From the sequence record MK509462: a stretch of DNA of 64,000 nucleotides; one strand, written 5' to 3'. The translations under genes were made by a program, and so were the position numbers. Position 1 is the stretch's first letter. Every line of letters starts with the position of its first letter. The notes under the pieces were generated by a model. It saw only the letters and a list, made by a program, of their open reading frames with translations. It was not told the origin of the DNA and did no database searches. The stretch comes from Shigella phage MK-13. This document shows positions 3,097 through 59,827 of the stretch, in pieces.

Positions 3097-4308
3097 ATGG
3101 CCGATTTTCTGAGTCAATACACAGGTCAGCAGATTGATGCAATCCTTTCTTCTGTTGACGATAAAGTAAGCAAGAACGATGTTATCAACGATTTCGCTGT
3201 TGATGATCCGTTGTTTCCTCCTTCAGCTCATCTGACGTATGAACTGAAGCGTTCTGTGGATGACATCTACGACACGTTGGATAATAAGGTGATTCGCACC
3301 GACGGTGGGGAACAAACTATCAACGGGCGGAAGACTTTTGCCGCAGAAATCCGAGCCAATGCTGGTGTCAGTATCCCTACGGGGAAGAAACTTACCATCG
3401 CAGATGAGCCAGTTGATTCCACTGATGGCGTCAATCTGTCTATGCTGCGCAAGCACGGCGTGAGTGAAGACACTGCCGGGGTTAACTCTGGTCTGAAAAT
3501 CGAGTTGTTATCTGGCGGCTACAACAAACTCACTTTCGACGGCACAAATCTGGCCACTTACTCTGGTACTGGTGTGCCAACTACCATGTTACTGGTGAGT
3601 GGAACCGACACTGTCAAGTACGACACATCTGCGTTTGTGACTTCTATCTTCAATGATACGCGTTTCAACGCTTATCTGAAGGTTGTTGATTACGACGCCG
3701 ATATGTTGGATATCCAGTCTCAGTTCAATACTGTGAACACCACTCTGGCAGCGAAGGTCAACACATCGACTTACAACTCCAAGATGTCTAGCCTGGACAC
3801 CAGTATACTGGATCTGACGAACAACAAAGTGAACGTCAGTACGTATAACACGAAGATGGCGGCGTTGGACAGTTCCATCAGCGGCATTCAGAGTGATATC
3901 GGCACGATCAATACCACGTTGTCTGGAAAGGTCAACACATCGACCTACAACGCCAAAATGACAAGCCTGGACGCCGACATTGCTGCCCGTGTGAAGATCG
4001 GGAAGACCAACCCAAGCGGCATCACTGTCTCTGCTTCGGGGAACTCTGCGTTGCCCGACTTCGATTTGGTGAACCTTTGCCAAGTGTTGATCAGTGCACA
4101 ATGGGGTACAGGCAACGTCGTGGATACGTACCGCGTGACGATCACCCGTGACGGGACTATCAAGTCTGAGCTGTTGATTCAGAAGTCCACTTCCGGTACG
4201 GTGACATTCGCGGGTTCTGTAGTGTCTTCAAAACTTCGTTTGACGATAACAAATGCGAACACGACGACTGCGTGCTCTATTGATTATAGTCTGGTCGCTT
4301 CTTTCTAA
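3097..4308 (+). CDS. tail fibre-like protein with heptad/serial repeats
   Basis: 403 aa; N-terminus typical of phage fibre proteins (TINGRKTFA, DSTDGVNLSMLRK); internal repeats VNTSTYNSKMSSLD / VSTYNTKMAALD / VNTSTYNAKMTSLD. Confidence 0.55.
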   Translation: MADFLSQYTGQQIDAILSSVDDKVSKNDVINDFAVDDPLFPPSAHLTYELKRSVDDIYDTLDNKVIRTDGGEQTINGRKTFAAEIRANAGVSIPTGKKLTIADEPVDSTDGVNLSMLRKHGVSEDTAGVNSGLKIELLSGGYNKLTFDGTNLATYSGTGVPTTMLLVSGTDTVKYDTSAFVTSIFNDTRFNAYLKVVDYDADMLDIQSQFNTVNTTLAAKVNTSTYNSKMSSLDTSILDLTNNKVNVSTYNTKMAALDSSISGIQSDIGTINTTLSGKVNTSTYNAKMTSLDADIAARVKIGKTNPSGITVSASGNSALPDFDLVNLCQVLISAQWGTGNVVDTYRVTITRDGTIKSELLIQKSTSGTVTFAGSVVSSKLRLTITNANTTTACSIDYSLVASF

Positions 4309-4316
4309 AGTGAAAG

Positions 4317-4327
4317 CTAAATACCCC
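4317..4327 (+). promoter_or_regulatory. late-promoter-like motif CTAAATACCCC with 5'-UTR hairpin (ataccccta / taggggtat, 4321..4355)
   Basis: CTAAATAcccc followed by inverted repeat whose 3' arm supplies a GGGG Shine-Dalgarno 7 nt before ATG 4361. Confidence 0.45.
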
Positions 4328-4360
4328 TAGATGAAACGAACACATTTAGGGGTATTTGAA

Positions 4361-7255
4361 ATGGCTAATAAACCAACACAGCCTGTTTTCCCTCTCGGTC
4401 TGGTGGCTGAAGAGCAGTCTACTTTGGCTGGTATCCTCAACACGGGTACGATTGAGCATGGACCAGATGCTGTCCTGACTTTACCCGAGGGTAATGCCAG
4501 TGCAGGTCTCCCGTCTTCTGTTCGCTACAATGCCGACTCCGACGAATTTGAGGGCTTCTACGAAAATGGTGGATGGTTGCCGCTGGGTGGCGGTGGTATC
4601 CGCTGGGAAGCCCTTCCGCATGCCTCTACGGCAACGCTCACTGAAGGGCGAGGCTATCTGGTAGACAACTCCACAGGCGTCTCTACGGTGGTGTTCCCTT
4701 CCCCTACGCGCATTGGCGATTCTGTTACAGTCTGTGACTTGTATGGAAAGTTCTCCCTGTATCCCCTGACCATTGACCCAAATGGTCGCCCAATGTATGG
4801 CTCTGTAGAGCCTATGACGCTCTCCACCGACAGCGTATCTGCGACCTTTACCTGGTCTGGTGACGCGCGTGGCTGGATTGTGACTGCTGGCGTCGGCCTT
4901 GGGCAGGGGCGCGTGTATAGCCGCACGATCTTCACTGAAACCGTTTCGGTAGACACCGCTCAAGTTACTCTGACAACGCAGCCGTCGATTGTTGATGTGT
5001 ATGTTGACGGCAAGCGCCTGCTGGAATCAAAGTATTCCCTCAATGGTTTCAATGTCGACTTCAGTCCATCAATCCCATCAGGTTCCGAGCTGCAGGTCAT
5101 CCAATACGTCCCGATCCAGTTAGGCAATGGCTCCGGTGGTTCCGGCGGCGGTACGGTTATCACTTGGATCTACAATAGTGGATCAGCTGCGGGTGGTGAA
5201 ACCGAGATCGAGTTGGACGTGGATGCCGAAGATGTTTCTGAGATCTTTATCGATGGATCCCGCCAGCAAAAAGGTCTGGGCTTCACTTATGACTCCGTTA
5301 CGAAGATCATCACGCTGGCCGACGAACTCGAAGCTGGTGATGAAGTTGTTGTCGTCATCAATGGCGACCCAACCCTGTACAATCAGATCGACCGTACACC
5401 AAACGAAGTGGCGCGTTCCGTGAACGTGCCGAATTCTCAGGTTATTTTGTCGTCCGATACCATCACCAAACTGGACGGAAAGACGGTTATCTATGATGTG
5501 GTGGCGCAAAAGATTTGGAGCTTACCTTCTGGTATCCCGACAGGTTCTTCTGTTGTATCTGTGAGTGGGAGCACTCTGACATATGCACCAGGGAATGTTG
5601 TTGTTTCTTTGCTCTTGCCGACTTCTGAAAGTTTGGTCGTTTTCCAAGAATTATTAGAGTCTAATGCGGGGGTTGGGTCTATTGGTGGCGTTGCTGTGGA
5701 ATTAGGAGACCGAAACTCGCTAAACTCGAACCAGACCGTGCTCGGGCGTATTGTGGCCAGCAAAACTCTTTCTGGTATTTACAACAAATATTCAGTTGTT
5801 CCCAACACAGGTAAAGTTGCTGACGGTGTGGTATTAATTGACCGCCTGGACGGTAATCAACTTGAAATTCAATTTGAAGACTATATTGATGTTCGCGCTT
5901 TCATGTTCGGCGCAATGACAGATCAGGAAACATTACAGGCAGCATTGGATTATGCGGATAGTGTTTCCGGACATTGCGTAATTGGCATCACACCCAAAAA
6001 CAAAAATGGAGACCCTTGGGTGTTCACGCATCTGCATATTGGTTCTAAAACTATTGTTAAGGGTGCAGGCGGCTGGTTGAAATTCGCAGATAATGTTTGT
6101 AATGATGCGACCAAAGCATATTATCTTGTCGAGAACTTTGATGCACAGGATACCCATTTAATAGATTTGTATATAGACGGAAACCAAGCAAGCAACACAT
6201 TGTATGCTGTAGCCGACATCTTAACGTTCGGTGGGAATCGATGCTCTATCACCAACTGTAAGCTCGTGAATGCCCCCGACTCAGGTCTGATGTTTGCGAC
6301 TACCAAAAACTGCTGGGTGAATGGTCTTTATGTAGAAAACACGCGCGACCTTGGGATCTACTTATCTGCAAGTGTGGCAGGCGGTACTCGTAACTGCGCA
6401 ATGTCCAACCTGGTGTTGCGCGACTGCGCTCAAGGGGCTATGGGTTTCAAACGCTACGTTGCCGACATTGTTGTGGATAATGTTGTAGCCACCAACTGTG
6501 GTAATGGAATCACCTTTGAAGGTTTTGAAGTTGTGACGCCGGGTATGAACCCATCCAATATCACTATGAGCAATATACGTCTGCGTGATATTGGATTTGG
6601 TTATCGGTCTGTTTCAGCGGCAGAGCGAGCTTTAAGTTTCGATTATGCTCGCGGCATCCGTATTAGCAACCTCAGCGTTCAGAACTGTTCTGGTGTCGGT
6701 ATCTTCTTCAGCACTAACACAAGTACTGGTATTTACATTAATGGCGCTAACTTAACTGGATATGCTGCTAACCCACAAATCGCGAGTGGTGTCCCAAACA
6801 ACGATGGTATTCAGTGTAATGGTGCTTCTGGTTTTGAACTGATTAATGTGAACTTGGAAGGGTTCGCAAGATACGCAGCTTGGTTCCTGAGCTGTAGTGG
6901 CGGCAGCGTGGTCGGTGGTCGTTGGACTAATACCCAGGCTAGTGGATATAATGCATACAACGGCGCACGTGTAAATGCAGCCTGTAGTTTCACTAAGTTT
7001 TCGCCTGAGTTTATTAGTGGGGCGAGCGGAACAGACCTAGAATGGTTTAATGGTGCGACTGGAATTACCAAAGACACGATACTGAACAATGCTACTGGCC
7101 CAGCAAAATATGGGTATGTTGTCGTCTCTGGTCCTACGCCTGTGGCTACAGTAACCCCCCGTTTTATTGGGCAGGAAGTCTGGAGTGCAGGTGCGAGTTC
7201 CTGGTGGAAATCACATGGCTTAACCTCCTCAGACTGGAAACAGATGTCAAATTGA
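4361..7255 (+). CDS. tailspike protein A (gp10-like N-terminal region plus right-handed beta-helix depolymerase-like domain)
   Basis: ORF 4331..7255; start moved to ATG 4361 downstream of promoter/hairpin. C-terminal half shows serial N-C-x-G / asparagine-ladder repeats (NCKLVNAPDSG, NCAMSNLVLRDCAQG, NCGNGITFEG, NCSGVGIFF) typical of pectate-lyase-fold tailspikes. Confidence 0.65.
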   Translation: MANKPTQPVFPLGLVAEEQSTLAGILNTGTIEHGPDAVLTLPEGNASAGLPSSVRYNADSDEFEGFYENGGWLPLGGGGIRWEALPHASTATLTEGRGYLVDNSTGVSTVVFPSPTRIGDSVTVCDLYGKFSLYPLTIDPNGRPMYGSVEPMTLSTDSVSATFTWSGDARGWIVTAGVGLGQGRVYSRTIFTETVSVDTAQVTLTTQPSIVDVYVDGKRLLESKYSLNGFNVDFSPSIPSGSELQVIQYVPIQLGNGSGGSGGGTVITWIYNSGSAAGGETEIELDVDAEDVSEIFIDGSRQQKGLGFTYDSVTKIITLADELEAGDEVVVVINGDPTLYNQIDRTPNEVARSVNVPNSQVILSSDTITKLDGKTVIYDVVAQKIWSLPSGIPTGSSVVSVSGSTLTYAPGNVVVSLLLPTSESLVVFQELLESNAGVGSIGGVAVELGDRNSLNSNQTVLGRIVASKTLSGIYNKYSVVPNTGKVADGVVLIDRLDGNQLEIQFEDYIDVRAFMFGAMTDQETLQAALDYADSVSGHCVIGITPKNKNGDPWVFTHLHIGSKTIVKGAGGWLKFADNVCNDATKAYYLVENFDAQDTHLIDLYIDGNQASNTLYAVADILTFGGNRCSITNCKLVNAPDSGLMFATTKNCWVNGLYVENTRDLGIYLSASVAGGTRNCAMSNLVLRDCAQGAMGFKRYVADIVVDNVVATNCGNGITFEGFEVVTPGMNPSNITMSNIRLRDIGFGYRSVSAAERALSFDYARGIRISNLSVQNCSGVGIFFSTNTSTGIYINGANLTGYAANPQIASGVPNNDGIQCNGASGFELINVNLEGFARYAAWFLSCSGGSVVGGRWTNTQASGYNAYNGARVNAACSFTKFSPEFISGASGTDLEWFNGATGITKDTILNNATGPAKYGYVVVSGPTPVATVTPRFIGQEVWSAGASSWWKSHGLTSSDWKQMSN

Positions 7256-19230: not shown

Positions 19231-19479
19231 ATGCGTGGTGTAAAAGTACAGGGGCATGCATCGATGATGAGAAGTAGCTCTTGCCCTGGGGCTATCATCT
19301 GCACAGACAGCGCTGCTGGTTTAGCGGCTCTGAACGCCCGTCGTAATCAGGAAGAAAAGGACAGAACTATTGCAGCGCAGGCAGCGCAAATCGATCAACT
19401 GACAGCGACGGTACAACTCATGGCGGAACACCTCGGGATTGAACTCCCGTCAGGAGGCCAAGATGACAACTCAAACTAA
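19231..19479 (+). CDS. hypothetical protein
   Basis: 82-aa ORF with AGAGGA RBS; Q/A-rich C-terminal helix. Confidence 0.35.
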   Translation: MRGVKVQGHASMMRSSSCPGAIICTDSAAGLAALNARRNQEEKDRTIAAQAAQIDQLTATVQLMAEHLGIELPSGGQDDNSN

Positions 19480-19801
19480 CACTGTGATCGATGTGAAAGC
19501 GATCCTCACCGGGGTGCTGACGGCGGCGATAGTCTCTGTTGGCTCGGTTGTTTGGATGATGGGTAAGTTCGAAAACCGTCTTGATGTGGTTGAGCGGGAT
19601 TCCAACAAGGTTGACCAGATCCTTGTCAAAGTCAACGATATGAGTGAGAAGATCGCTGTATTGAACACAGACGTCAACTACGTCAAGCAGAACGTTGCTG
19701 AATTAAAACTCAATAGCAGCAGTCTGTCCGACGACGTGCGAACTCTGCGGATTACGGTATCTGATCTCCAGAGTGGTAAGGGGAACGTCAATGGCCGTTA
19801 A
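19463..19801 (+). CDS. membrane-anchored coiled-coil protein (N-terminal TM helix; i-spanin-like topology, unproven)
   Basis: ORF 19439..19801, start at ATG 19463 after AGGAGG; hydrophobic segment AILTGVLTAAIVSVGSVVWMMG then coiled-coil-like region. Confidence 0.4.
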   Translation: MTTQTNTVIDVKAILTGVLTAAIVSVGSVVWMMGKFENRLDVVERDSNKVDQILVKVNDMSEKIAVLNTDVNYVKQNVAELKLNSSSLSDDVRTLRITVSDLQSGKGNVNGR

Positions 19802-27712: not shown

Positions 27713-29404
27713 ATGGCATTCGGTAATGGTGCATTCGGTAACGGGTTCTTCGGTCTGTTCGGTACTGGCGGGAAGATTGAAGCCCCGGTAGACACCGACA
27801 AACTGGTAACGAACCAAGAAGAGAAGTTGCTTTCAAAAGCGGCTGTTGTTGCGCTGGACGATGCTCAGGATGGTTCTATCATCTTGCAGGGCGGTGCCAA
27901 CACATTCAATTTCGTAGGCGTTGAGAGTGAACTACTCAGCGTCAAACAAGTCGTCGAAGAATATCAGTCTATGGCTCAGCAACCTGAGATCCGTAAGGCT
28001 GTCGATATTATCGTGAACGACGTCGTCACCTGTGAAGAGGATGAGACTCCCGTCACAATCAATCTGGAAAAGGTTGAAGGCATCGACGACTCCATCAAAG
28101 AAAAGATCAATGATGCCTTCAAGGAAGTTCTTGAACTCATGGACTTCAACAACACCGCATATCAAAAGATCCGTCGTTGGTATGTAGAAGGTCGTCAAGC
28201 ATACCATGTTGTCGTAGATCCAAAGAACAAGAAAGGTGGTATTGCCAAACTGGTGATGCTGGATTCGCGCTGCATCCGCCCTGTATACATCGTGAAGAAA
28301 GAAGTTCGCGACGGCATCGAGGTAATTGGAGAAGTCAAACTTCAATACTACTACAACCCGAACTACAACCGCAATCAGTTTACTGGGCAATCGGGCACGT
28401 CTCAGAACTTCCAGCCGTCACAGCAGGAACTGGTGTTTGATGAAGAAAGCGTTGTCTACATCGACAGTGGTGAAGATCCGTTGGCCAATGGGGTTATCCC
28501 AGGCTTGCTGAACCCTGCTATCCGTCCCCTGAACAACCTCGTTACAACTGAGGATGCGACGGTCATCTACGCCATCACGCGTGCTCCAGAGAAGCGAGCG
28601 TTCTATCTCGACGTGGGTACTCTGGGTAAGAAGTCTGCGGAAGAGTATATGCAGGCGATGATGGGTAAATTCAAGAACCGTCTGGCGTATGATCGCACCA
28701 CTGGTAAAGTGGCAGGCAATACCCATCTGATGGGTATCGCTGAAGACTACTGGTTGCCGCGCCGCGAAGGGCAGAACGCAACGGAGATATCCAACGTAGG
28801 TGGCGGCGATCAACTGGGTCAAATGGATCATGTGGTATACTTCCGCGAGAAGCTCTACGAGGCTCTGATGATCCCTAAGAGCCGCCTCCAAGAGGAAGGT
28901 TCCATCAACATCGGTGGTTCCAATCTTGCCGAAATCACCCAGGAAGAACTGCGCTTCAACAAATTCTGCGCAGGCCTGCGCCGTCGTTATTCAGGATTCT
29001 TCCTTGAACTTCTTCGTCGTCAGCTGATCCTGAAGAACATCACTGACCAGACTGATTGGAACGAAAAGATCAAGCCGTTTGTCAAGTTCGAATTTACATC
29101 TGACAGCTTCATTCGTGAGCAGCAGGAAAACGAAATCCTGGCGCAACGCATGTCTGCTCTTGGTCAGATCGAACCGTACATTGGCACCCTGTTCTCTATC
29201 GATTATGCTCAGCGCAATCTGCTGCGTATGTCTGACGAAGACATCAAAGATCAGCAAGAGAAGATCGCGCAAGAGAAGAAAGAAGGCAAATATCCTGAAG
29301 TGCAGGCAGATGAATCAGGCGGCTTCGGCGGCGGTGAAGTCAGCCCACTGAAATTCAGACCTAACGTCATCCCAGCGACTAACCCTCCTGGTGGTGAAGA
29401 ATAA
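27713..29404 (+). CDS. portal vertex protein, gp20-like
   Basis: 563 aa in gp20 position between tube and prohead-core genes; GAGGA RBS. Confidence 0.65.
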   Translation: MAFGNGAFGNGFFGLFGTGGKIEAPVDTDKLVTNQEEKLLSKAAVVALDDAQDGSIILQGGANTFNFVGVESELLSVKQVVEEYQSMAQQPEIRKAVDIIVNDVVTCEEDETPVTINLEKVEGIDDSIKEKINDAFKEVLELMDFNNTAYQKIRRWYVEGRQAYHVVVDPKNKKGGIAKLVMLDSRCIRPVYIVKKEVRDGIEVIGEVKLQYYYNPNYNRNQFTGQSGTSQNFQPSQQELVFDEESVVYIDSGEDPLANGVIPGLLNPAIRPLNNLVTTEDATVIYAITRAPEKRAFYLDVGTLGKKSAEEYMQAMMGKFKNRLAYDRTTGKVAGNTHLMGIAEDYWLPRREGQNATEISNVGGGDQLGQMDHVVYFREKLYEALMIPKSRLQEEGSINIGGSNLAEITQEELRFNKFCAGLRRRYSGFFLELLRRQLILKNITDQTDWNEKIKPFVKFEFTSDSFIREQQENEILAQRMSALGQIEPYIGTLFSIDYAQRNLLRMSDEDIKDQQEKIAQEKKEGKYPEVQADESGGFGGGEVSPLKFRPNVIPATNPPGGEE

Positions 29405-29441
29405 TTCGACTAAGTATAGAAAACATTTAGAGGATATGAAC

Positions 29442-29609
29442 ATGGCCGCTATCGATCTGGTAAAAGCAATCATCGCTGGTGACACCGATGCTGCTGTTGC
29501 TGAATGTCAAACTGAACTGTCTGCTCGCGCCCAAGAACTCGTTCAACAGGGCACCGCATATGTCATGAACTCTCTGAGTCAAGACATGTCTCCTGCGCAA
29601 GACGAATAA
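29442..29609 (+). CDS. small prohead core protein (gp67-like position)
   Basis: ORF 29391..29609; ATG 29442 is 7 nt after AGAGGA; small acidic protein between portal and protease as in T4 (20-67-68-21). Confidence 0.35.
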   Translation: MAAIDLVKAIIAGDTDAAVAECQTELSARAQELVQQGTAYVMNSLSQDMSPAQDE

Positions 29610-29619
29610 GGAGAGCATC

Positions 29620-29925
29620 ATGGAAATCGAAGAAGTTGCAACATTCGCTGATTTCCTGGCTTCCCGCATGGACGAGCAGAAAGTCATTGACAAGGTGAAT
29701 GCAAAAGGTAAACGCCGCCGTCGCCTGCAGTGCGCTCCTGGTTTCAAATTGTCTGCGGATGGTTCTCGTTGTGAGGTTATGGTCGCCAGTGAGCGCCGTA
29801 CCCGCAAGCTGGGCAACCGCAAGGCAATCCGAGCCAAGAAACGCATGGGTATGGGCTACAGTCGCAAGATTGAGCGTCGTAAGAAGAAAGCGATGAAGTT
29901 CCGCAAAATGATGGGACTGAGTTAA
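29620..29925 (+). CDS. basic prohead core / internal head protein (gp68-like position)
   Basis: 101 aa, extremely Lys/Arg-rich C-terminal half (KGKRRRRLQ...RKAIRAKKRMG...RRKKKAMKFRK). Confidence 0.4.
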   Translation: MEIEEVATFADFLASRMDEQKVIDKVNAKGKRRRRLQCAPGFKLSADGSRCEVMVASERRTRKLGNRKAIRAKKRMGMGYSRKIERRKKKAMKFRKMMGLS

Positions 29926-35318: not shown

Positions 35319-35350
35319 CTGTCTCCCATTTGAATTGAAGGAACTATATC

Positions 35351-46920: not shown

Positions 46921-47035
46921 AGATTCCCTTTACTTCATTCTTCAATAACTTTTTTCAACGTATTATTGACCTCACTTAAACGAAGCGCCCTGGCAAACGG
47001 GGCGCACATTTGAACTGAAACAGGAAGACTACATC

Positions 47036-56840: not shown

Positions 56841-56859
56841 GCGGGGTATGATTACCCCG
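56841..56859 (+). repeat. palindromic hairpin gcggggtatgattaccccg (copy 1; copy 2 at 57399..57420)
   Basis: Identical 19-nt hairpin recurs 560 nt downstream; each is followed by (C)TATTTGAA...ACTATATC-ATG. Confidence 0.6.
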
Positions 56860-56885
56860 TCTATTTGAAATGCAGGAACTATATC

Positions 56886-57392
56886 ATGACCGATCAACAA
56901 ATTCAAGATTTATTTTACCTCGCCCATGATAAGTCCCACATCATGCGCCCCGGTACTGTTTCCCCTGCCGTCCGTGATCTGGTGCAAGAATTACGCGAAC
57001 CACAGACGACCACACTTTATCGCGGGCTGCCTAAGGAGGACGTTGCGCGTTTAGAGATGTTGTTTGAACGAGGCGACATGTTCCAGACATGGGATTCTTG
57101 TCTTAGCTTCAGTGAACTGAAGCATGTGGCCAAACAATTTTCTAAATCGTACGGAACCAAAGCTGTTGCCCGCATTTGTTACAAACATCGAAACGGACTC
57201 CCGGAGGGGCTTAATGTCTATGGTTCTCTAGAAAAATTTGTGAACAAAGGCGATGAATCAGAAATGGATATGCTGGACTTGGCGTCCATGGAGAAAGAAT
57301 GGATATTCTGCCAGCCTCGCGTCATACCAGTTTCAAGAAAAATGGCAACAGACGGGACGATGGTTTTTACCGTATCACTTGTTACCCTATAA
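56886..57392 (+). CDS. hypothetical protein; candidate ADP-ribosyltransferase (speculative R / S-x-S / E-x-E pattern)
   Basis: ORF 56865..57392, ATG 56886. LYRG (Arg), SCLSFS, and EKEW arranged in the order seen in R-S-E ADP-ribosyltransferases such as T4 Alt/Mod; weak evidence. Confidence 0.4.
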   Translation: MTDQQIQDLFYLAHDKSHIMRPGTVSPAVRDLVQELREPQTTTLYRGLPKEDVARLEMLFERGDMFQTWDSCLSFSELKHVAKQFSKSYGTKAVARICYKHRNGLPEGLNVYGSLEKFVNKGDESEMDMLDLASMEKEWIFCQPRVIPVSRKMATDGTMVFTVSLVTL

Positions 57393-57398
57393 ACCCAC

Positions 57399-57420
57399 GG
57401 CGGGGTATGATTACCCCGCC
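57399..57420 (+). repeat. palindromic hairpin ggcggggtatgattaccccgcc (copy 2)
   Basis: See 56841..56859. Confidence 0.6.
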
Positions 57421-57444
57421 CATTTGAAACCAAGAGACTATATC

Positions 57445-57819
57445 ATGAAAAAGTTAATCCTCGCTGTTGCCCTGCTGGGTGCTTCCTTTGCTGCTGTTTC
57501 CGCCCCTCCTGTCATCACCGGAGTGTCTACCAACGGCGTTTATGCTTTCAAGGCGTATGGCCAAGACCTCGTTCTGTATAAGAACGGGAAGATGATTGAG
57601 CGCTGTGTAGCGGATGGTGTAAACCGTGGGATCGACAATCAGGGCAGTCCGTTCATCCTGGACTTCTATGCCTGCTCCAACGGGACGAAGACCTTTGGTG
57701 TCAAGACCTTCGGCAACGTCGCCGACGGCGGCTGGGGCTTCATGATCGAAACCCGCAACCGCCGCCCGGTCACGACCATTGAAGAAGAGTTCTTGATCTC
57801 TGTCGGGGGCACGTTATGA
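57445..57819 (+). CDS. secreted protein (cleavable signal peptide)
   Basis: ORF 57253..57819 truncated to ATG 57445 (after hairpin/cassette); MKKLILAVALLGASFAAVSA signal peptide. Confidence 0.45.
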   Translation: MKKLILAVALLGASFAAVSAPPVITGVSTNGVYAFKAYGQDLVLYKNGKMIERCVADGVNRGIDNQGSPFILDFYACSNGTKTFGVKTFGNVADGGWGFMIETRNRRPVTTIEEEFLISVGGTL

Positions 57820-58103
57820 CACCATCAGAGAGAAGTTCTATCAAGGAGATGATCAGAGACAAGGCGTGTGTTGGCCATACTCAGTCAGAGAACATCTTGC
57901 GCCTGATGGAGGTCAAGAATCATATCGACAATGGCCGATTCCAATCAGCGTTGTATGGTATGCTGGAGTTTATATCGCGGTCATCTGATCTTGGCACGGT
58001 CCGATATCTTGACGATCTGACCAAGCTGCTGAACACGGGCGGGGAAACTTTCGACACCGCTCGTATCCTGATTGACGGTGGACCTGAAGAAGACGAGGTG
58101 TGA
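57816..58103 (+). CDS. hypothetical protein
   Basis: 95 aa; ATGA overlap with upstream gene. Confidence 0.4.
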   Translation: MTPSERSSIKEMIRDKACVGHTQSENILRLMEVKNHIDNGRFQSALYGMLEFISRSSDLGTVRYLDDLTKLLNTGGETFDTARILIDGGPEEDEV

Positions 58104-58213
58104 TGGTGGACATTGAATTTTGGGGTTGGCTTATTGGATGTTCATTGGGCGTCTTGCTCGTTTTGTTGTGTGAATATCTCGGAGCCGTACTGTGTAAGAC
58201 ATTTCACGCCTAA
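58103..58213 (+). CDS. small hydrophobic peptide (36 aa), not in ORF track
   Basis: ATG 58103 overlapping upstream stop (GTGATGG); WGWLIGCSLGVLLVLLCEYLGAVLC single TM segment. Confidence 0.25.
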   Translation: MVDIEFWGWLIGCSLGVLLVLLCEYLGAVLCKTFHA

Positions 58214-58246
58214 CTAAGGGATAATCCATATCCCGAGGTGAATCTC

Positions 58247-58696
58247 ATGTTCATGTCTTCCTTCATAGACTGGTTGAACATTATCAACGGCCTGAGGATT
58301 CCTGTCGGAAACCTCGGGCTTTCTCGTTCTTCTATGCCACAGATCGACGATGACAAGCAGCAGGCGTTCCATGACTACCTGGAGGAACTTGGCATCACCA
58401 TCGACGCTGGCCAGGTTCCTATCAAATCCCTCCGTCTCACCCAGAACGAAATCAACAAGATGAAGGTCTGGAAGATCATGAAGAACATCAGAAACAAGAA
58501 GCCCATGGGTCGGGTTTGGGTGTCTTCTGATAACTATGTGGTCGACGGCTCGCACCGCTATGTCGCCGCCCTGAACATGGATGACCGTCAGCGCATCAAG
58601 GTCTACAAAGTGGACATGCCAGCGATGGAGTTCGTCAAGGTCGCCAAGCAGTTCAAGGGTGTGAAGTTCAGAACCGTGTCTGACGCTCGCTTCTGA
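58247..58696 (+). CDS. ParB-like nuclease domain protein (tentative)
   Basis: ORF 58238..58696 (GTG), ATG 58247 after GAGGTG; VVDGSHRYVAAL resembles the ParB/sulfiredoxin DGxHR core. Confidence 0.4.
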   Translation: MFMSSFIDWLNIINGLRIPVGNLGLSRSSMPQIDDDKQQAFHDYLEELGITIDAGQVPIKSLRLTQNEINKMKVWKIMKNIRNKKPMGRVWVSSDNYVVDGSHRYVAALNMDDRQRIKVYKVDMPAMEFVKVAKQFKGVKFRTVSDARF

Positions 58697-58775
58697 ATAC
58701 GATAGTTTATTGAAACCCTTTACTCAACATGGTGATCCGCCTATCATTTCATCCAATGAAATAAGGAGAATCACC

Positions 58776-59462
58776 ATGAAACGTTTAATCCTCGGGGTCG
58801 TGCTGGCTGGTCTGGCATTACCCGCCGTCGCCAAGCTGAACTCCACAGGTGACAAACTGTGGTCTGATCTTTCCTACTGTGCTGGGTTCTCCCAGGCAGT
58901 CGCCATCGACAAGTCTGGTTCCATAGAGAACTTTGCTGAACTCTGGAACACAGGCAACGTCTCCACTGCAGTTGTTAACGCTGGGATTGAGTTCAACCGT
59001 TACAAACAGGGAGCCTATAACCTCAAGGGCTACCTCAATGACGACGAATTTAATCGAGGCGGCATGGAGGCTGGCGATCTTATCATGACTGGGCGTATGG
59101 GCACCCAAGGCCGAATGACAGTCAGACAGTGCCGTTCTCTCCCTTCTCCGGCATTACAGAAGGGTGTGCAGATAGGCCGCCGCCACCTGAACCTCATCAA
59201 CGATGGCAATCAGTGCATCAAAGTATTCGAATACAGCGCTACGCAGACCTCTGATCGAGTCCTGAAGAAGGAATGGCGCACCCGCGCCCTCGACCTCAGG
59301 GCATGGTTGGTGGAGAACGATTATTACTTTGAAGACAGGGTTCAGAACGGCCTGAAAGACCTGGCCACGAATCTGAGCGTGAACCTTGATGATCCTCGCA
59401 TGTCGCGCGAACTCCAGCAGACTCGTGTTGACTGCGACAATATGATGAAGGAGAACGAGTGA
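58776..59462 (+). CDS. secreted protein (cleavable signal peptide)
   Basis: ORF 58710..59462 truncated to ATG 58776 (AAGGAG RBS); MKRLILGVVLAGLALPAVA signal peptide; several Cys. Confidence 0.45.
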   Translation: MKRLILGVVLAGLALPAVAKLNSTGDKLWSDLSYCAGFSQAVAIDKSGSIENFAELWNTGNVSTAVVNAGIEFNRYKQGAYNLKGYLNDDEFNRGGMEAGDLIMTGRMGTQGRMTVRQCRSLPSPALQKGVQIGRRHLNLINDGNQCIKVFEYSATQTSDRVLKKEWRTRALDLRAWLVENDYYFEDRVQNGLKDLATNLSVNLDDPRMSRELQQTRVDCDNMMKENE

Positions 59463-59776
59463 TGAAAGGTAAAATCCTACTCCTGCTGTTACTGATGGCC
59501 GGGTGTGTAAACGCCACACCACCGTCTAAACTGAATACCTGCGCCGCCTGGATGGAGACGTATCAGCAATTCCATCCGGACGACAAAGATACATCTATCC
59601 TCCTGTCTGACTTCGAGGGAGAGCTGAAGCGCCTTGATCTGTTCAGTGTTGATCAGATAGAGAATGCGCTGGACCTACCAATGATGATGTCTGCGGCCGA
59701 AAACAGCCCACAAACGAAGAAAGACCTGATGTATTGTCGGGGGATTGCCCAGGACTTTGTCGGATTTCAAAAATAA
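59462..59776 (+). CDS. putative lipoprotein
   Basis: ORF 59459..59776; ATG 59462 overlapping upstream stop; MKGKILLLLLLMAGC with lipobox-like MAGC. Confidence 0.45.
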   Translation: MKGKILLLLLLMAGCVNATPPSKLNTCAAWMETYQQFHPDDKDTSILLSDFEGELKRLDLFSVDQIENALDLPMMMSAAENSPQTKKDLMYCRGIAQDFVGFQK

Positions 59777-59827
59777 GTTTCGGGTTAAAATTTAGCCCTA
59801 CATTGTGAACTGAAGGAATACACTGTG

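Follow-up and report, generated by a model that had tools for sequence, protein, structure and literature searches.

Two-component spanins, of which Rz/Rz1 of phage lambda and PseT.3/PseT.2 of phage T4 are examples, pair an i-spanin with an o-spanin and, at lysis, fuse the outer membrane with the inner one. In the spanin survey by the Ry Young group (Kongari et al. 2018), all of the Vi1-like phages examined (CBA120, PhaxI, ECML-4, Vi01, SFP10, Maynard, SJ2, SJ3, phiSboM-AG3, and Dickeya phage RC-2014) were classed as spanin-less, and it was remarked that in some genomes a lipoprotein gene is present with no type II membrane protein linked to it (PMC6139136). Further reports on these phages identified no spanin and no holin (PMC6509524, PMC6509533). 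A different kind of envelope protein is Spackle (gp61.3) of T4, an early periplasmic protein of 75 amino acids (aa) that forms a helical bundle with a C29-C81 disulfide, inhibits the gp5 lysozyme, and excludes superinfecting phage (PMC7677548). Here, we analyze two neighboring genes, designated E and F, in a cluster of six (A to F; Table 1) from Shigella phage MK-13 (sequence record MK509462); the whole stretch of DNA analyzed, 64,000 nucleotides (nt) of one strand, 5' to 3', is referred to as the window. Both genes carry spanin labels in the databases, but their products very probably are exported and are not canonical spanins.

The 4-kb stretch around the cluster is sequence of an Ackermannviridae (Vi1-like) myovirus, with identities of 94.8% to Salmonella phage pSal-SNUABM-02, 96.9% to Shigella phage ChubbyThor, and ~95% to Shigella phage AG3, and these nearest relatives are in or near the genus Agtrevirus. 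The genome architecture is T4-like, with scattered lysis genes; ChubbyThor has a single annotated endolysin (PG_binding_1 plus Muramidase), which lies ~20 kb away from the cluster, and no annotated holin. The annotation of the E-F pair in ChubbyThor is “putative i-spanin / o-spanin,” and E is named “i-spanin” and F “Rz-like spanin” in several RefSeq records. No experimental basis for these labels was found in the papers and records examined, and PHROGs and RefSeq give the bare name; F of Maynard was annotated by the Young laboratory merely as a lipoprotein. The sequence-only reading that preceded this analysis, in which the locus was described as a cluster of three exported proteins and a small membrane peptide, overlooked this existing annotation. 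The four open reading frames (ORFs) on which that description was built (A, C, E, and F) are all present, with start codons upstream of the hydrophobic segments and good ribosome-binding sites preceding them, and the starts of E and F are further supported because their N-terminal features are kept in homologues. Its assignment of Sec signal peptides to A and E also stands, with a positive n-region, a hydrophobic h-region of ~10 to 15 residues, and small residues at -3 and -1 all present in both and kept in homologues. Signal-peptide and lipoprotein classes were assigned here by a rule-based and comparative procedure, and the criteria for an i-spanin and for an o-spanin applied to E and F were those of Kongari et al. 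2018 (PMC6139136).

An i-spanin has an uncleaved N-terminal transmembrane domain (TMD) in the type II orientation and a periplasmic coiled coil, and in the reference proteins lambda Rz and T4 PseT.3 the TMDs consist of 19 to 20 uncharged residues without a cleavage motif. The N terminus of E is instead a predicted cleavable signal peptide laid out as MKR / LILGVVLAGLAL / PAVA↓KL (the arrow marks the cleavage site), with a 12-residue uncharged h-region and a Pro at -4. An uncharged h-region of 10 to 16 residues followed by A-x-A↓ is found in 33 of the 33 E-family sequences, the most divergent members included, and none of the 33 has a lipobox. E also lacks a recognizable coiled coil, although its AlphaFold2 model is poor (predicted local distance difference test [pLDDT], 41.6): the protein has two domains with an invariant Cys pair in each (C35/C119 and C147/C220), domain 1 is Gly-rich and domain 2 is helical, and the predicted helices are of ≤21 residues. 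In Miltonvirus and Nezavisimistyvirus, E consists of domain 1 only. The C-terminal domain of E was considered as a possible paralogue of F, given a similar helix pattern and Cys placement, and was rejected (hhalign probability, <1-9%; Foldseek of the low-confidence E model was unsupportive).

An o-spanin is expected to be a short, Pro-rich lipoprotein with little secondary structure (Rz1 contains 18.3% Pro), to carry a lipobox Cys with no Asp at +2, and to keep its lipoprotein signal among orthologues. F of the window does have a lipobox, LMAGC, in its N terminus MKGKILLLLLLMAGC, with Met at -3 and Val at +2, and it is the sole ORF with a lipoprotein signal in all six frames of the window. The signal is not conserved, however. 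A good lipobox ([MI][AV]GC) is confined to the clade of the window (6 of 47 F clusters plus the window itself), and F of P0002, which is 97% identical to that of the window, has LMAGS, the acceptor Cys being replaced by Ser. In all other lineages, F has an ordinary A-x-A↓[AS]P site for signal peptidase I (SPase I); such sites occur in the orthologues of Vi01, May, RC-2014, 2050H1, Bue1, and the fetched sequences L009 and L010, as well as in members of Kuttervirus, Taipeivirus, Limestonevirus, Miltonvirus, and Nezavisimistyvirus, and an all-frame scan found no lipoprotein signal on the orthologues of Vi01, May, and RC-2014. Lipidation of the window's F is predicted but not certain, because a residual, ancestral SPase I site (VNA↓TP) directly adjoins the lipobox Cys. 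This distribution indicates a lipid anchor that is probably recent, clade-specific, and dispensable, and the earlier description of F as lipoprotein-like therefore applies to the lipobox of the window and not to the family.

The fold of F is likewise unlike that of an o-spanin. The model of mature F (86 to 90 aa), which has high confidence (pLDDT, 91.9; predicted template modeling score, 0.84), is a compact bundle of five helices; structure prediction, which had been proposed as a check on the exported proteins, was thus informative for F and poor for E. F is acidic (isoelectric point [pI], 4.47; charge, -6.5) and contains 4.8% Pro. Its two invariant Cys residues, C27 and C92, are placed in the first and last helices of the model, from which we infer a C27/C92 disulfide. 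No fold or sequence match to E or F was found in PDB or BFVD, the E model used being of low confidence.

Spanin genes are adjacent, overlapped, or embedded, and E and F do have this arrangement, in the window and in every relative examined, where the genes overlap or abut; in the window, the start codon ATG of F overlaps the stop codon TGA of E (TGATG). Homologues of E were found in 269 phage records, at 80 to 99% identity, and those of F in 280, a level of conservation similar to that of the endolysin. All of the genera examined (Agtrevirus, Limestonevirus, Kuttervirus, Taipeivirus, Miltonvirus, and Nezavisimistyvirus) have the order D-E-F, as do two divergent metagenomic contigs. Two indexed searches, one profile search, and an exhaustive hidden Markov model scan of 1.84 billion representatives yielded no homologue of E or F outside the Ackermannviridae, and only 10 relatives of E were found among those representatives. 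E and F thus appear to be a core, translationally coupled pair of the Ackermannviridae, present in ~270 to 280 records. A correlation between the architecture of E and the type of endolysin was also sought; it was uninformative, the endolysin being similarly conserved.

Several of these observations would fit a two-component spanin: the genes overlap and both encode N-terminal targeting signals, the pair is as conserved as a lysis function would be, F is the sole lipoprotein candidate in the window and in the ~157 kb of ChubbyThor, no other spanin has been identified in the family, and the databases label the pair as spanins. However, gene adjacency and a clade-specific lipobox are the only spanin features that the pair has. 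E is predicted to be cleaved, in 33 of 33 homologues, rather than anchored as a type II membrane protein and has no long coiled coil, F is a non-lipoprotein in most genera and has lost the Cys even in a close relative, its Pro content is far from the 18% of Rz1, and the Young laboratory itself classes these phages as spanin-less. Since neither protein is membrane tethered in most of the family, a mechanism in which a spanin spans the periplasm and fuses the membranes cannot operate there, and we regard a canonical spanin role for E and F as very improbable. For the Ackermannviridae, therefore, neither a spanin nor a holin has yet been identified, in line with the conclusion of the Young laboratory.

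An embedded or unannotated o-spanin was sought in all frames of the window, of the ~157 kb of ChubbyThor, and of the flanks of seven relatives, and this search returned F and one internal start that probably does not yield a lipoprotein. Among the additional lipobox ORFs of divergent relatives (Bue1, L010, 2050H1, and L009), none lies beside a gene for a type II membrane protein. We also found, in the late structural region of the window and adjoining a neck gene, a gene for a 112-aa protein whose topology is like that of an i-spanin or a class III holin, with a short N terminus, a TMD of ~21 residues (AILTGVLTAAIVSVGSVVWMM), and then ~75 residues that look helical and have a heptad pattern. 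This protein belongs to the uncharacterized family phrog_3961, is conserved in 281 Ackermannviridae records, and has nearly the size of T4 PseT.3. In no frame is a lipoprotein ORF embedded in its gene or adjacent to it. The protein could be relevant to the family's holin or spanin or could instead serve as a morphogenesis factor.

The sequence between D and E contains a σ70-like promoter, TTTACT-17 nt-TATCAT, which is one of 2 such sites in the window against 0.02 expected. The D-E spacer is nearly identical across Agtrevirus, Limestonevirus, and Kuttervirus; in Taipeivirus it has diverged, yet both hexamers and the 17-nt spacing are kept (TTTACT-17-TACTAT). Maintenance of the hexamers and their spacing despite the divergence of the spacer suggests that the promoter is functional with host σ70 and that E and F are expressed early. 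A second motif, CTAAATAY, occurs nine times in the window against 1.5 expected, always on the plus strand and confined to the structural half, between 0.4 and 39.8 kb. Most of the sites lie a short way upstream of structural genes, and the motif is probably the late promoter of the family. None of its occurrences is in the 40- to 64-kb part of the window that holds the cluster, and the late promoter consensus of T4, TATAAATA, was not found in the window. The earlier placement of the cluster in an early region is supported indirectly by these two signals; literature searches for transcriptome or functional work on these genes returned nothing relevant. A further recurrent motif, ATTTGAA(c/t)TGAAGGAnCTATATC-ATG, stands immediately 5' of several nonstructural genes, including A and G. 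It joins a conserved upstream element to the ribosome-binding site and may act as a middle promoter, an RNA-processing signal, or a translational signal.

Timing and topology bear on two other lysis roles. In one, E and F would replace spanins in completing lysis by disrupting the outer membrane (OM) without an anchor, for example, by destabilizing the OM or its Lpp/Pal links after murein degradation. A family without an identified spanin or holin does lyse Gram-negative hosts, the pair is core, periplasmic, and family restricted, relocation of F to the OM in a single clade would be compatible with action on that membrane, and Kongari et al. allow noncanonical topologies (PMC6139136). However, F is acidic, both proteins lack cationic or amphipathic segments like that of the disruptin described in bioRxiv 10.1101/515445, disruption of the OM by soluble acidic helical bundles has no precedent, and the promoter is of the σ70 type and not late. 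The last of these arguments is softened by the fact that T4 spanins are likewise not strictly late. Taken together, these points make such a system improbable. In the other role, E and/or F would set the timing of lysis from the periplasm in the manner of RI, the T4 antiholin that binds to the holin's periplasmic domain. A T4-like genome with rIIA/rIIB that encodes small exported proteins, periplasmic and expressed early, would suit this idea. However, the family has no identified holin and, in particular, none of the T type with its periplasmic domain, neither E nor F resembles RI in sequence or fold, and the signals of E and F are ordinary cleavable ones and not signal-arrest-release domains. 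We consider this quite improbable.

Of the functional classes open to the pair, an envelope-directed action (exclusion, receptor, or antidefense), as the sequence-only reading had proposed for exported early proteins, is the most plausible. Our overall reading, which we hold as quite possible though short of probable, is that E and F constitute an early periplasmic module that binds or inhibits a target and protects the envelope of the infected cell. The pair would be transcribed by the host polymerase from its own early, σ70-type promoter, with translation coupled via TGATG; the products would leave the cytoplasm through Sec, and oxidative folding in the periplasm would give each domain one disulfide. 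E would be freed by SPase I as a soluble two-domain periplasmic protein; F would ancestrally be a soluble acidic helical bundle of ~86 aa, and in the window's clade the gained lipobox would probably anchor F at the OM, on its inner face, as Val at +2 predicts. Since the anchor has been gained or lost and neither protein is membrane embedded in most lineages, the pair likely binds a periplasmic target rather than bridging or fusing membranes. The likeliest role of E and F would then be one like that of Spackle, in which early periplasmic proteins shield the envelope of the infected cell, for instance by neutralizing a peptidoglycan hydrolase; candidate targets would be the muramidase of the phage itself or, in superinfecting relatives, the CHAP domain that the gp5-like tail hub carries. 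A binder or inhibitor with such an exclusion or protection role is possible, and we put it forward tentatively.

The same early expression and periplasmic location would also suit an attack on a conserved component of the host periplasm (a protease, a nuclease, Tol-Pal, Lpt, Bam, or a stress or defense sensor) that serves takeover or antidefense. The identity of E across phages of Salmonella, Escherichia, Klebsiella, and Dickeya (77 to 99%) fits a target conserved in the Enterobacterales, phages of Serratia and Erwinia have a divergent, single-domain E, and the locus gathers other exported proteins by lineage. On the other side, PADLOC, Pfam, NCBIfam, PDB, and BFVD gave no similarity to a known inhibitor or antidefense protein, and we rate a host target as somewhat unlikely, although this explanation and the exclusion or protection role are indistinguishable on present data.

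The remaining genes of the cluster appear to be a different matter. A single hydrophobicity rule applied to all 60 genes of the window identified hydrophobic N termini in 5, of which 4 are within the six consecutive genes A to F (hypergeometric P = 1.5e-4), so the clustering of exported genes is nonrandom. The cluster of three exported proteins and one peptide is therefore real as a cluster, but it is not one system: A is accessory, C is exchangeable, and E-F is core. No gene of the six had a match in Pfam, NCBIfam, or PADLOC, and A, D, E, and F had none in PDB by sequence and profile searches. Matches in PHROGs were to uncharacterized families, apart from the “Rz-like spanin” label of F and a weak ParB-like match of D. 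The earlier statement that the cluster contains no recognizable endolysin or holin is borne out by homology searches of A to F against PHROGs, Pfam, and NCBIfam.

A encodes a signal peptide laid out as MKK / LILAVALLGASFAAV / SA↓PP and a mature part of 104 aa with 2 Cys (54 and 77). It is found in 101 phage records, mostly non-Kuttervirus, and is missing from most Kuttervirus genomes; it had no match in PDB, Pfam, or NCBIfam. B adjoins D in relatives, and B-like genes are present in Vi01, May, RC-2014, and 2050H1. The single-TMD peptide C, confirmed at 36 aa, occupies a slot between B and D that holds either of two unrelated small membrane-peptide alleles between identical flanks: the 36-aa allele is common to the window and ChubbyThor, the alternative in P46FS4 and CECAV_050 is a 52-aa TMD peptide with a strongly basic tail (…RSDQKRRERKEKERKDRWMR), and the slot of Vi01 is empty. 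The 52-aa allele has a holin-like look. Selection at this slot seems to keep a small membrane peptide and not one particular sequence. D is immediately upstream of E-F throughout the family (Bue1, 2050H1, L009, L010, Vi01, May, and RC-2014). It matches phrog_2859 at 2.8e-45 and the ParB-like phrog_1033 weakly, at E = 1.7e-4, and Pfam, NCBIfam, and PDB gave no support for a ParB-like label; the phrog_1033 match and a DGSHR motif point weakly to a ParB/Srx-like protein.

In divergent Ackermannviridae, the region directly 3' of F holds additional envelope proteins: an SPFH/Band_7 lipoprotein in Bue1 and L010, a small lipoprotein and a 38-aa TMD peptide in 2050H1, and another signal-peptide protein with two Cys in L009. 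The E-F locus thus has the appearance of a family-wide hot spot for exported proteins, and the cluster of the window, in which A and C are predicted to be separate, exchangeable accessory envelope genes, would be an instance of it and not a single machine. In ChubbyThor, D and E are separated by an inserted homing-endonuclease-like gene with a NUMOD3 motif, and the annotation gives E an extended start; no such insertion is present in the window. Upstream of A, two identical perfect hairpins bracket an ORF for an Alt-like RNA polymerase ADP-ribosyltransferase, and in P46FS4, Vi01, and RC-2014 this slot contains denV (endonuclease V) and not the Alt-like gene. This suggests cassette exchange between repeated hairpins or terminators at the Alt-like/denV slot.

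Table 1. Coordinates of features in the window and in fetched comparison sequences (the latter identified by L numbers)
Feature	Sequence	Coordinates	Strand	Description
Gene A	Window	57445..57819	+	124-aa predicted secreted protein, accessory; phrog_5474 (uncharacterized family)
A signal peptide	Window	57445-57504		Residues 1-20, MKKLILAVALLGASFAAVSA↓PP; predicted cleavage AVSA↓PP
Gene B	Window	57816..58103	+	95 aa, without hydrophobic segment, predicted cytoplasmic; phrog_4458
Gene C	Window	58103..58213	+	36-aa single-TMD peptide, MVDIEFWGWLIGCSLGVLLVLLCEYLGAVLCKTFHA; GAGG upstream
Gene D	Window	58247..58696	+	~149 aa, predicted cytoplasmic; alternative GTG start 58238; DGSHR motif
σ70-like promoter	Window	58719..58747	+	TTTACT-17 nt-TATCAT, upstream of E
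Gene E	Window	58776..59462	+	228-aa predicted secreted protein; phrog_4260 (uncharacterized family); AGGAG 8 nt upstream
E signal peptide	Window	58776-58832		Residues 1-19, MKRLILGVVLAGLALPAVA↓KL; predicted cleavage LPAVA↓KL
Gene F	Window	59462..59776	+	104-aa predicted exported protein; alternative GTG start 59459; GGAG upstream; phrog_3843 “Rz-like spanin”
F lipobox	Window	59492-59506		LMAGC; Cys15 codon 59504-59506
F residual SPase I site	Window	59507-59515		VNA↓TP
CTAAATAY sites	Window	431, 4317, 9474, 14301, 20813, 30257, 30613, 36654, 39835	+	Probable late promoter
Pre-start motif sites	Window	57422-57444, 35328-35350, 47008-47035, 59800-59824 and others		Immediately 5' of start codons
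112-aa protein gene	Window	19463-19801	+	i-spanin-like or class III holin-like topology; TTG start option 19439
Paired hairpins	Window	56842-56859 and 57401-57418		Identical perfect hairpin CGGGGTATGATTACCCCG
Alt-like ORF	Window	56865-57392		phrog_832, 1.8e-15
C-slot comparison	L002	4215-4373		Compared with window 58103-58213
C-slot comparison	L003	4279-4464		Compared with window 58103-58213
D-E insertion	L001 (ChubbyThor)	4897-5727		Homing-endonuclease-like gene
Downstream of F	L007 (Bue1)	4403-5182		SPFH/Band_7 lipoprotein
Downstream of F	L010	7237-8028		SPFH/Band_7 lipoprotein
Downstream of F	L008 (2050H1)	4077-4352		Small lipoprotein
Downstream of F	L008 (2050H1)	3765-3881		38-aa TMD peptide
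Downstream of F	L009	2745-3077		Signal-peptide protein with two Cys
gp5-like hub gene	L005 (ChubbyThor)	28133-29743		Annotated “tail lysozyme”
T4 gene sp	L014	2259-2552	-	Spackle precursor

Hundreds of Ackermannviridae records carry spanin labels on E and F, and many of them belong to phages being developed for biocontrol of Salmonella, Escherichia coli O157, Klebsiella, and Dickeya, so the present analysis corrects a spanin annotation that has spread over hundreds of therapeutic-phage genomes. What takes its place is a core, family-restricted periplasmic pair in which the fold of F is confidently predicted and unmatched, and which is a testable candidate for a superinfection-exclusion or muralytic-inhibitor module or for an unconventional lysis function. 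The lipid anchor of F, gained and lost among close relatives, provides a natural experiment on the importance of localization. It is a long shot that the “spanin-less” Ackermannviridae have in E and F their missing device for completing lysis, a secreted pair that breaches or detaches the OM without a membrane anchor. Were this true, the database labels would be correct as to role and wrong as to mechanism, and the pair would represent a third class of phage OM disruptors after spanins and disruptins.

Compared with the two-component spanins lambda Rz/Rz1 and T4 PseT.3/PseT.2, E and F share adjacent or overlapping genes, envelope-bound products, periplasmic Cys, and, in the window, a lipobox on the downstream product. 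They differ in that E has two Cys-containing domains and neither an uncleaved TMD nor a coiled coil, whereas F is a folded helical bundle whose lipobox is missing in most orthologues. The window's F also resembles Llp of T5 and Cor of lambdoid phages, small early OM lipoproteins at the inner face of the OM that block the receptor against superinfecting phage, in being a small phage lipoprotein predicted at that location. However, Llp and Cor act as lipoproteins, the anchor of F is dispensable, and there is no homology between them; the primary receptors of the Ackermannviridae are polysaccharides. The variation in anchoring is mirrored by bacterial inhibitors, since PliC and MliC belong to one lysozyme-inhibitor family with both soluble periplasmic and lipoprotein forms, and the anchor switch of F is therefore compatible with a binding or inhibitor role. 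Lysozyme inhibitors (PliC/MliC, and also Ivy, PliG, and PliI) are mainly β-sheet proteins and act through a loop inserted in the active site (PMC7677548), whereas F is all helical and has no sequence or structure match to them.

Among the known systems, T4 Spackle is the nearest functional analogue, and the comparison with it concerns both F itself and its possible target. Spackle acts alone and F is coupled to the larger E, and no sequence similarity or detectable fold similarity exists between F and Spackle. The target of Spackle is the lysozyme domain of gp5, whereas the gp5-like hub of ChubbyThor, in spite of its annotation as a tail lysozyme, consists of Gp5_OB and CHAP (PF05257, 8.4e-11) without a lysozyme domain. 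Tail-associated murein cleavage in the Ackermannviridae is thus probably carried out by a CHAP amidase or peptidase, and a Spackle-analogous target would differ accordingly. The signal peptide encoded by T4 gene sp contains a lipobox-like ALASC ahead of AMA↓G, and the mature product of 75 aa is reported to be of the SPase I type; a lipobox close to an A-x-A site, as in the window's F, is therefore no guarantee of lipidation. Both proteins come from T4-like myoviruses, have Sec signals and like precursor layouts, and are early, in the case of F by prediction. Mature Spackle is acidic to a degree near that of F (pI, 4.63; charge, -5.2), and each is a small helical bundle with Cys that join, or would join, its N- and C-terminal parts (C29-C81 in Spackle; C27/C92 in F). 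By analogy, then, F has the Spackle-like design: a putatively early, Sec-exported, small acidic helical bundle with a predicted intramolecular disulfide.

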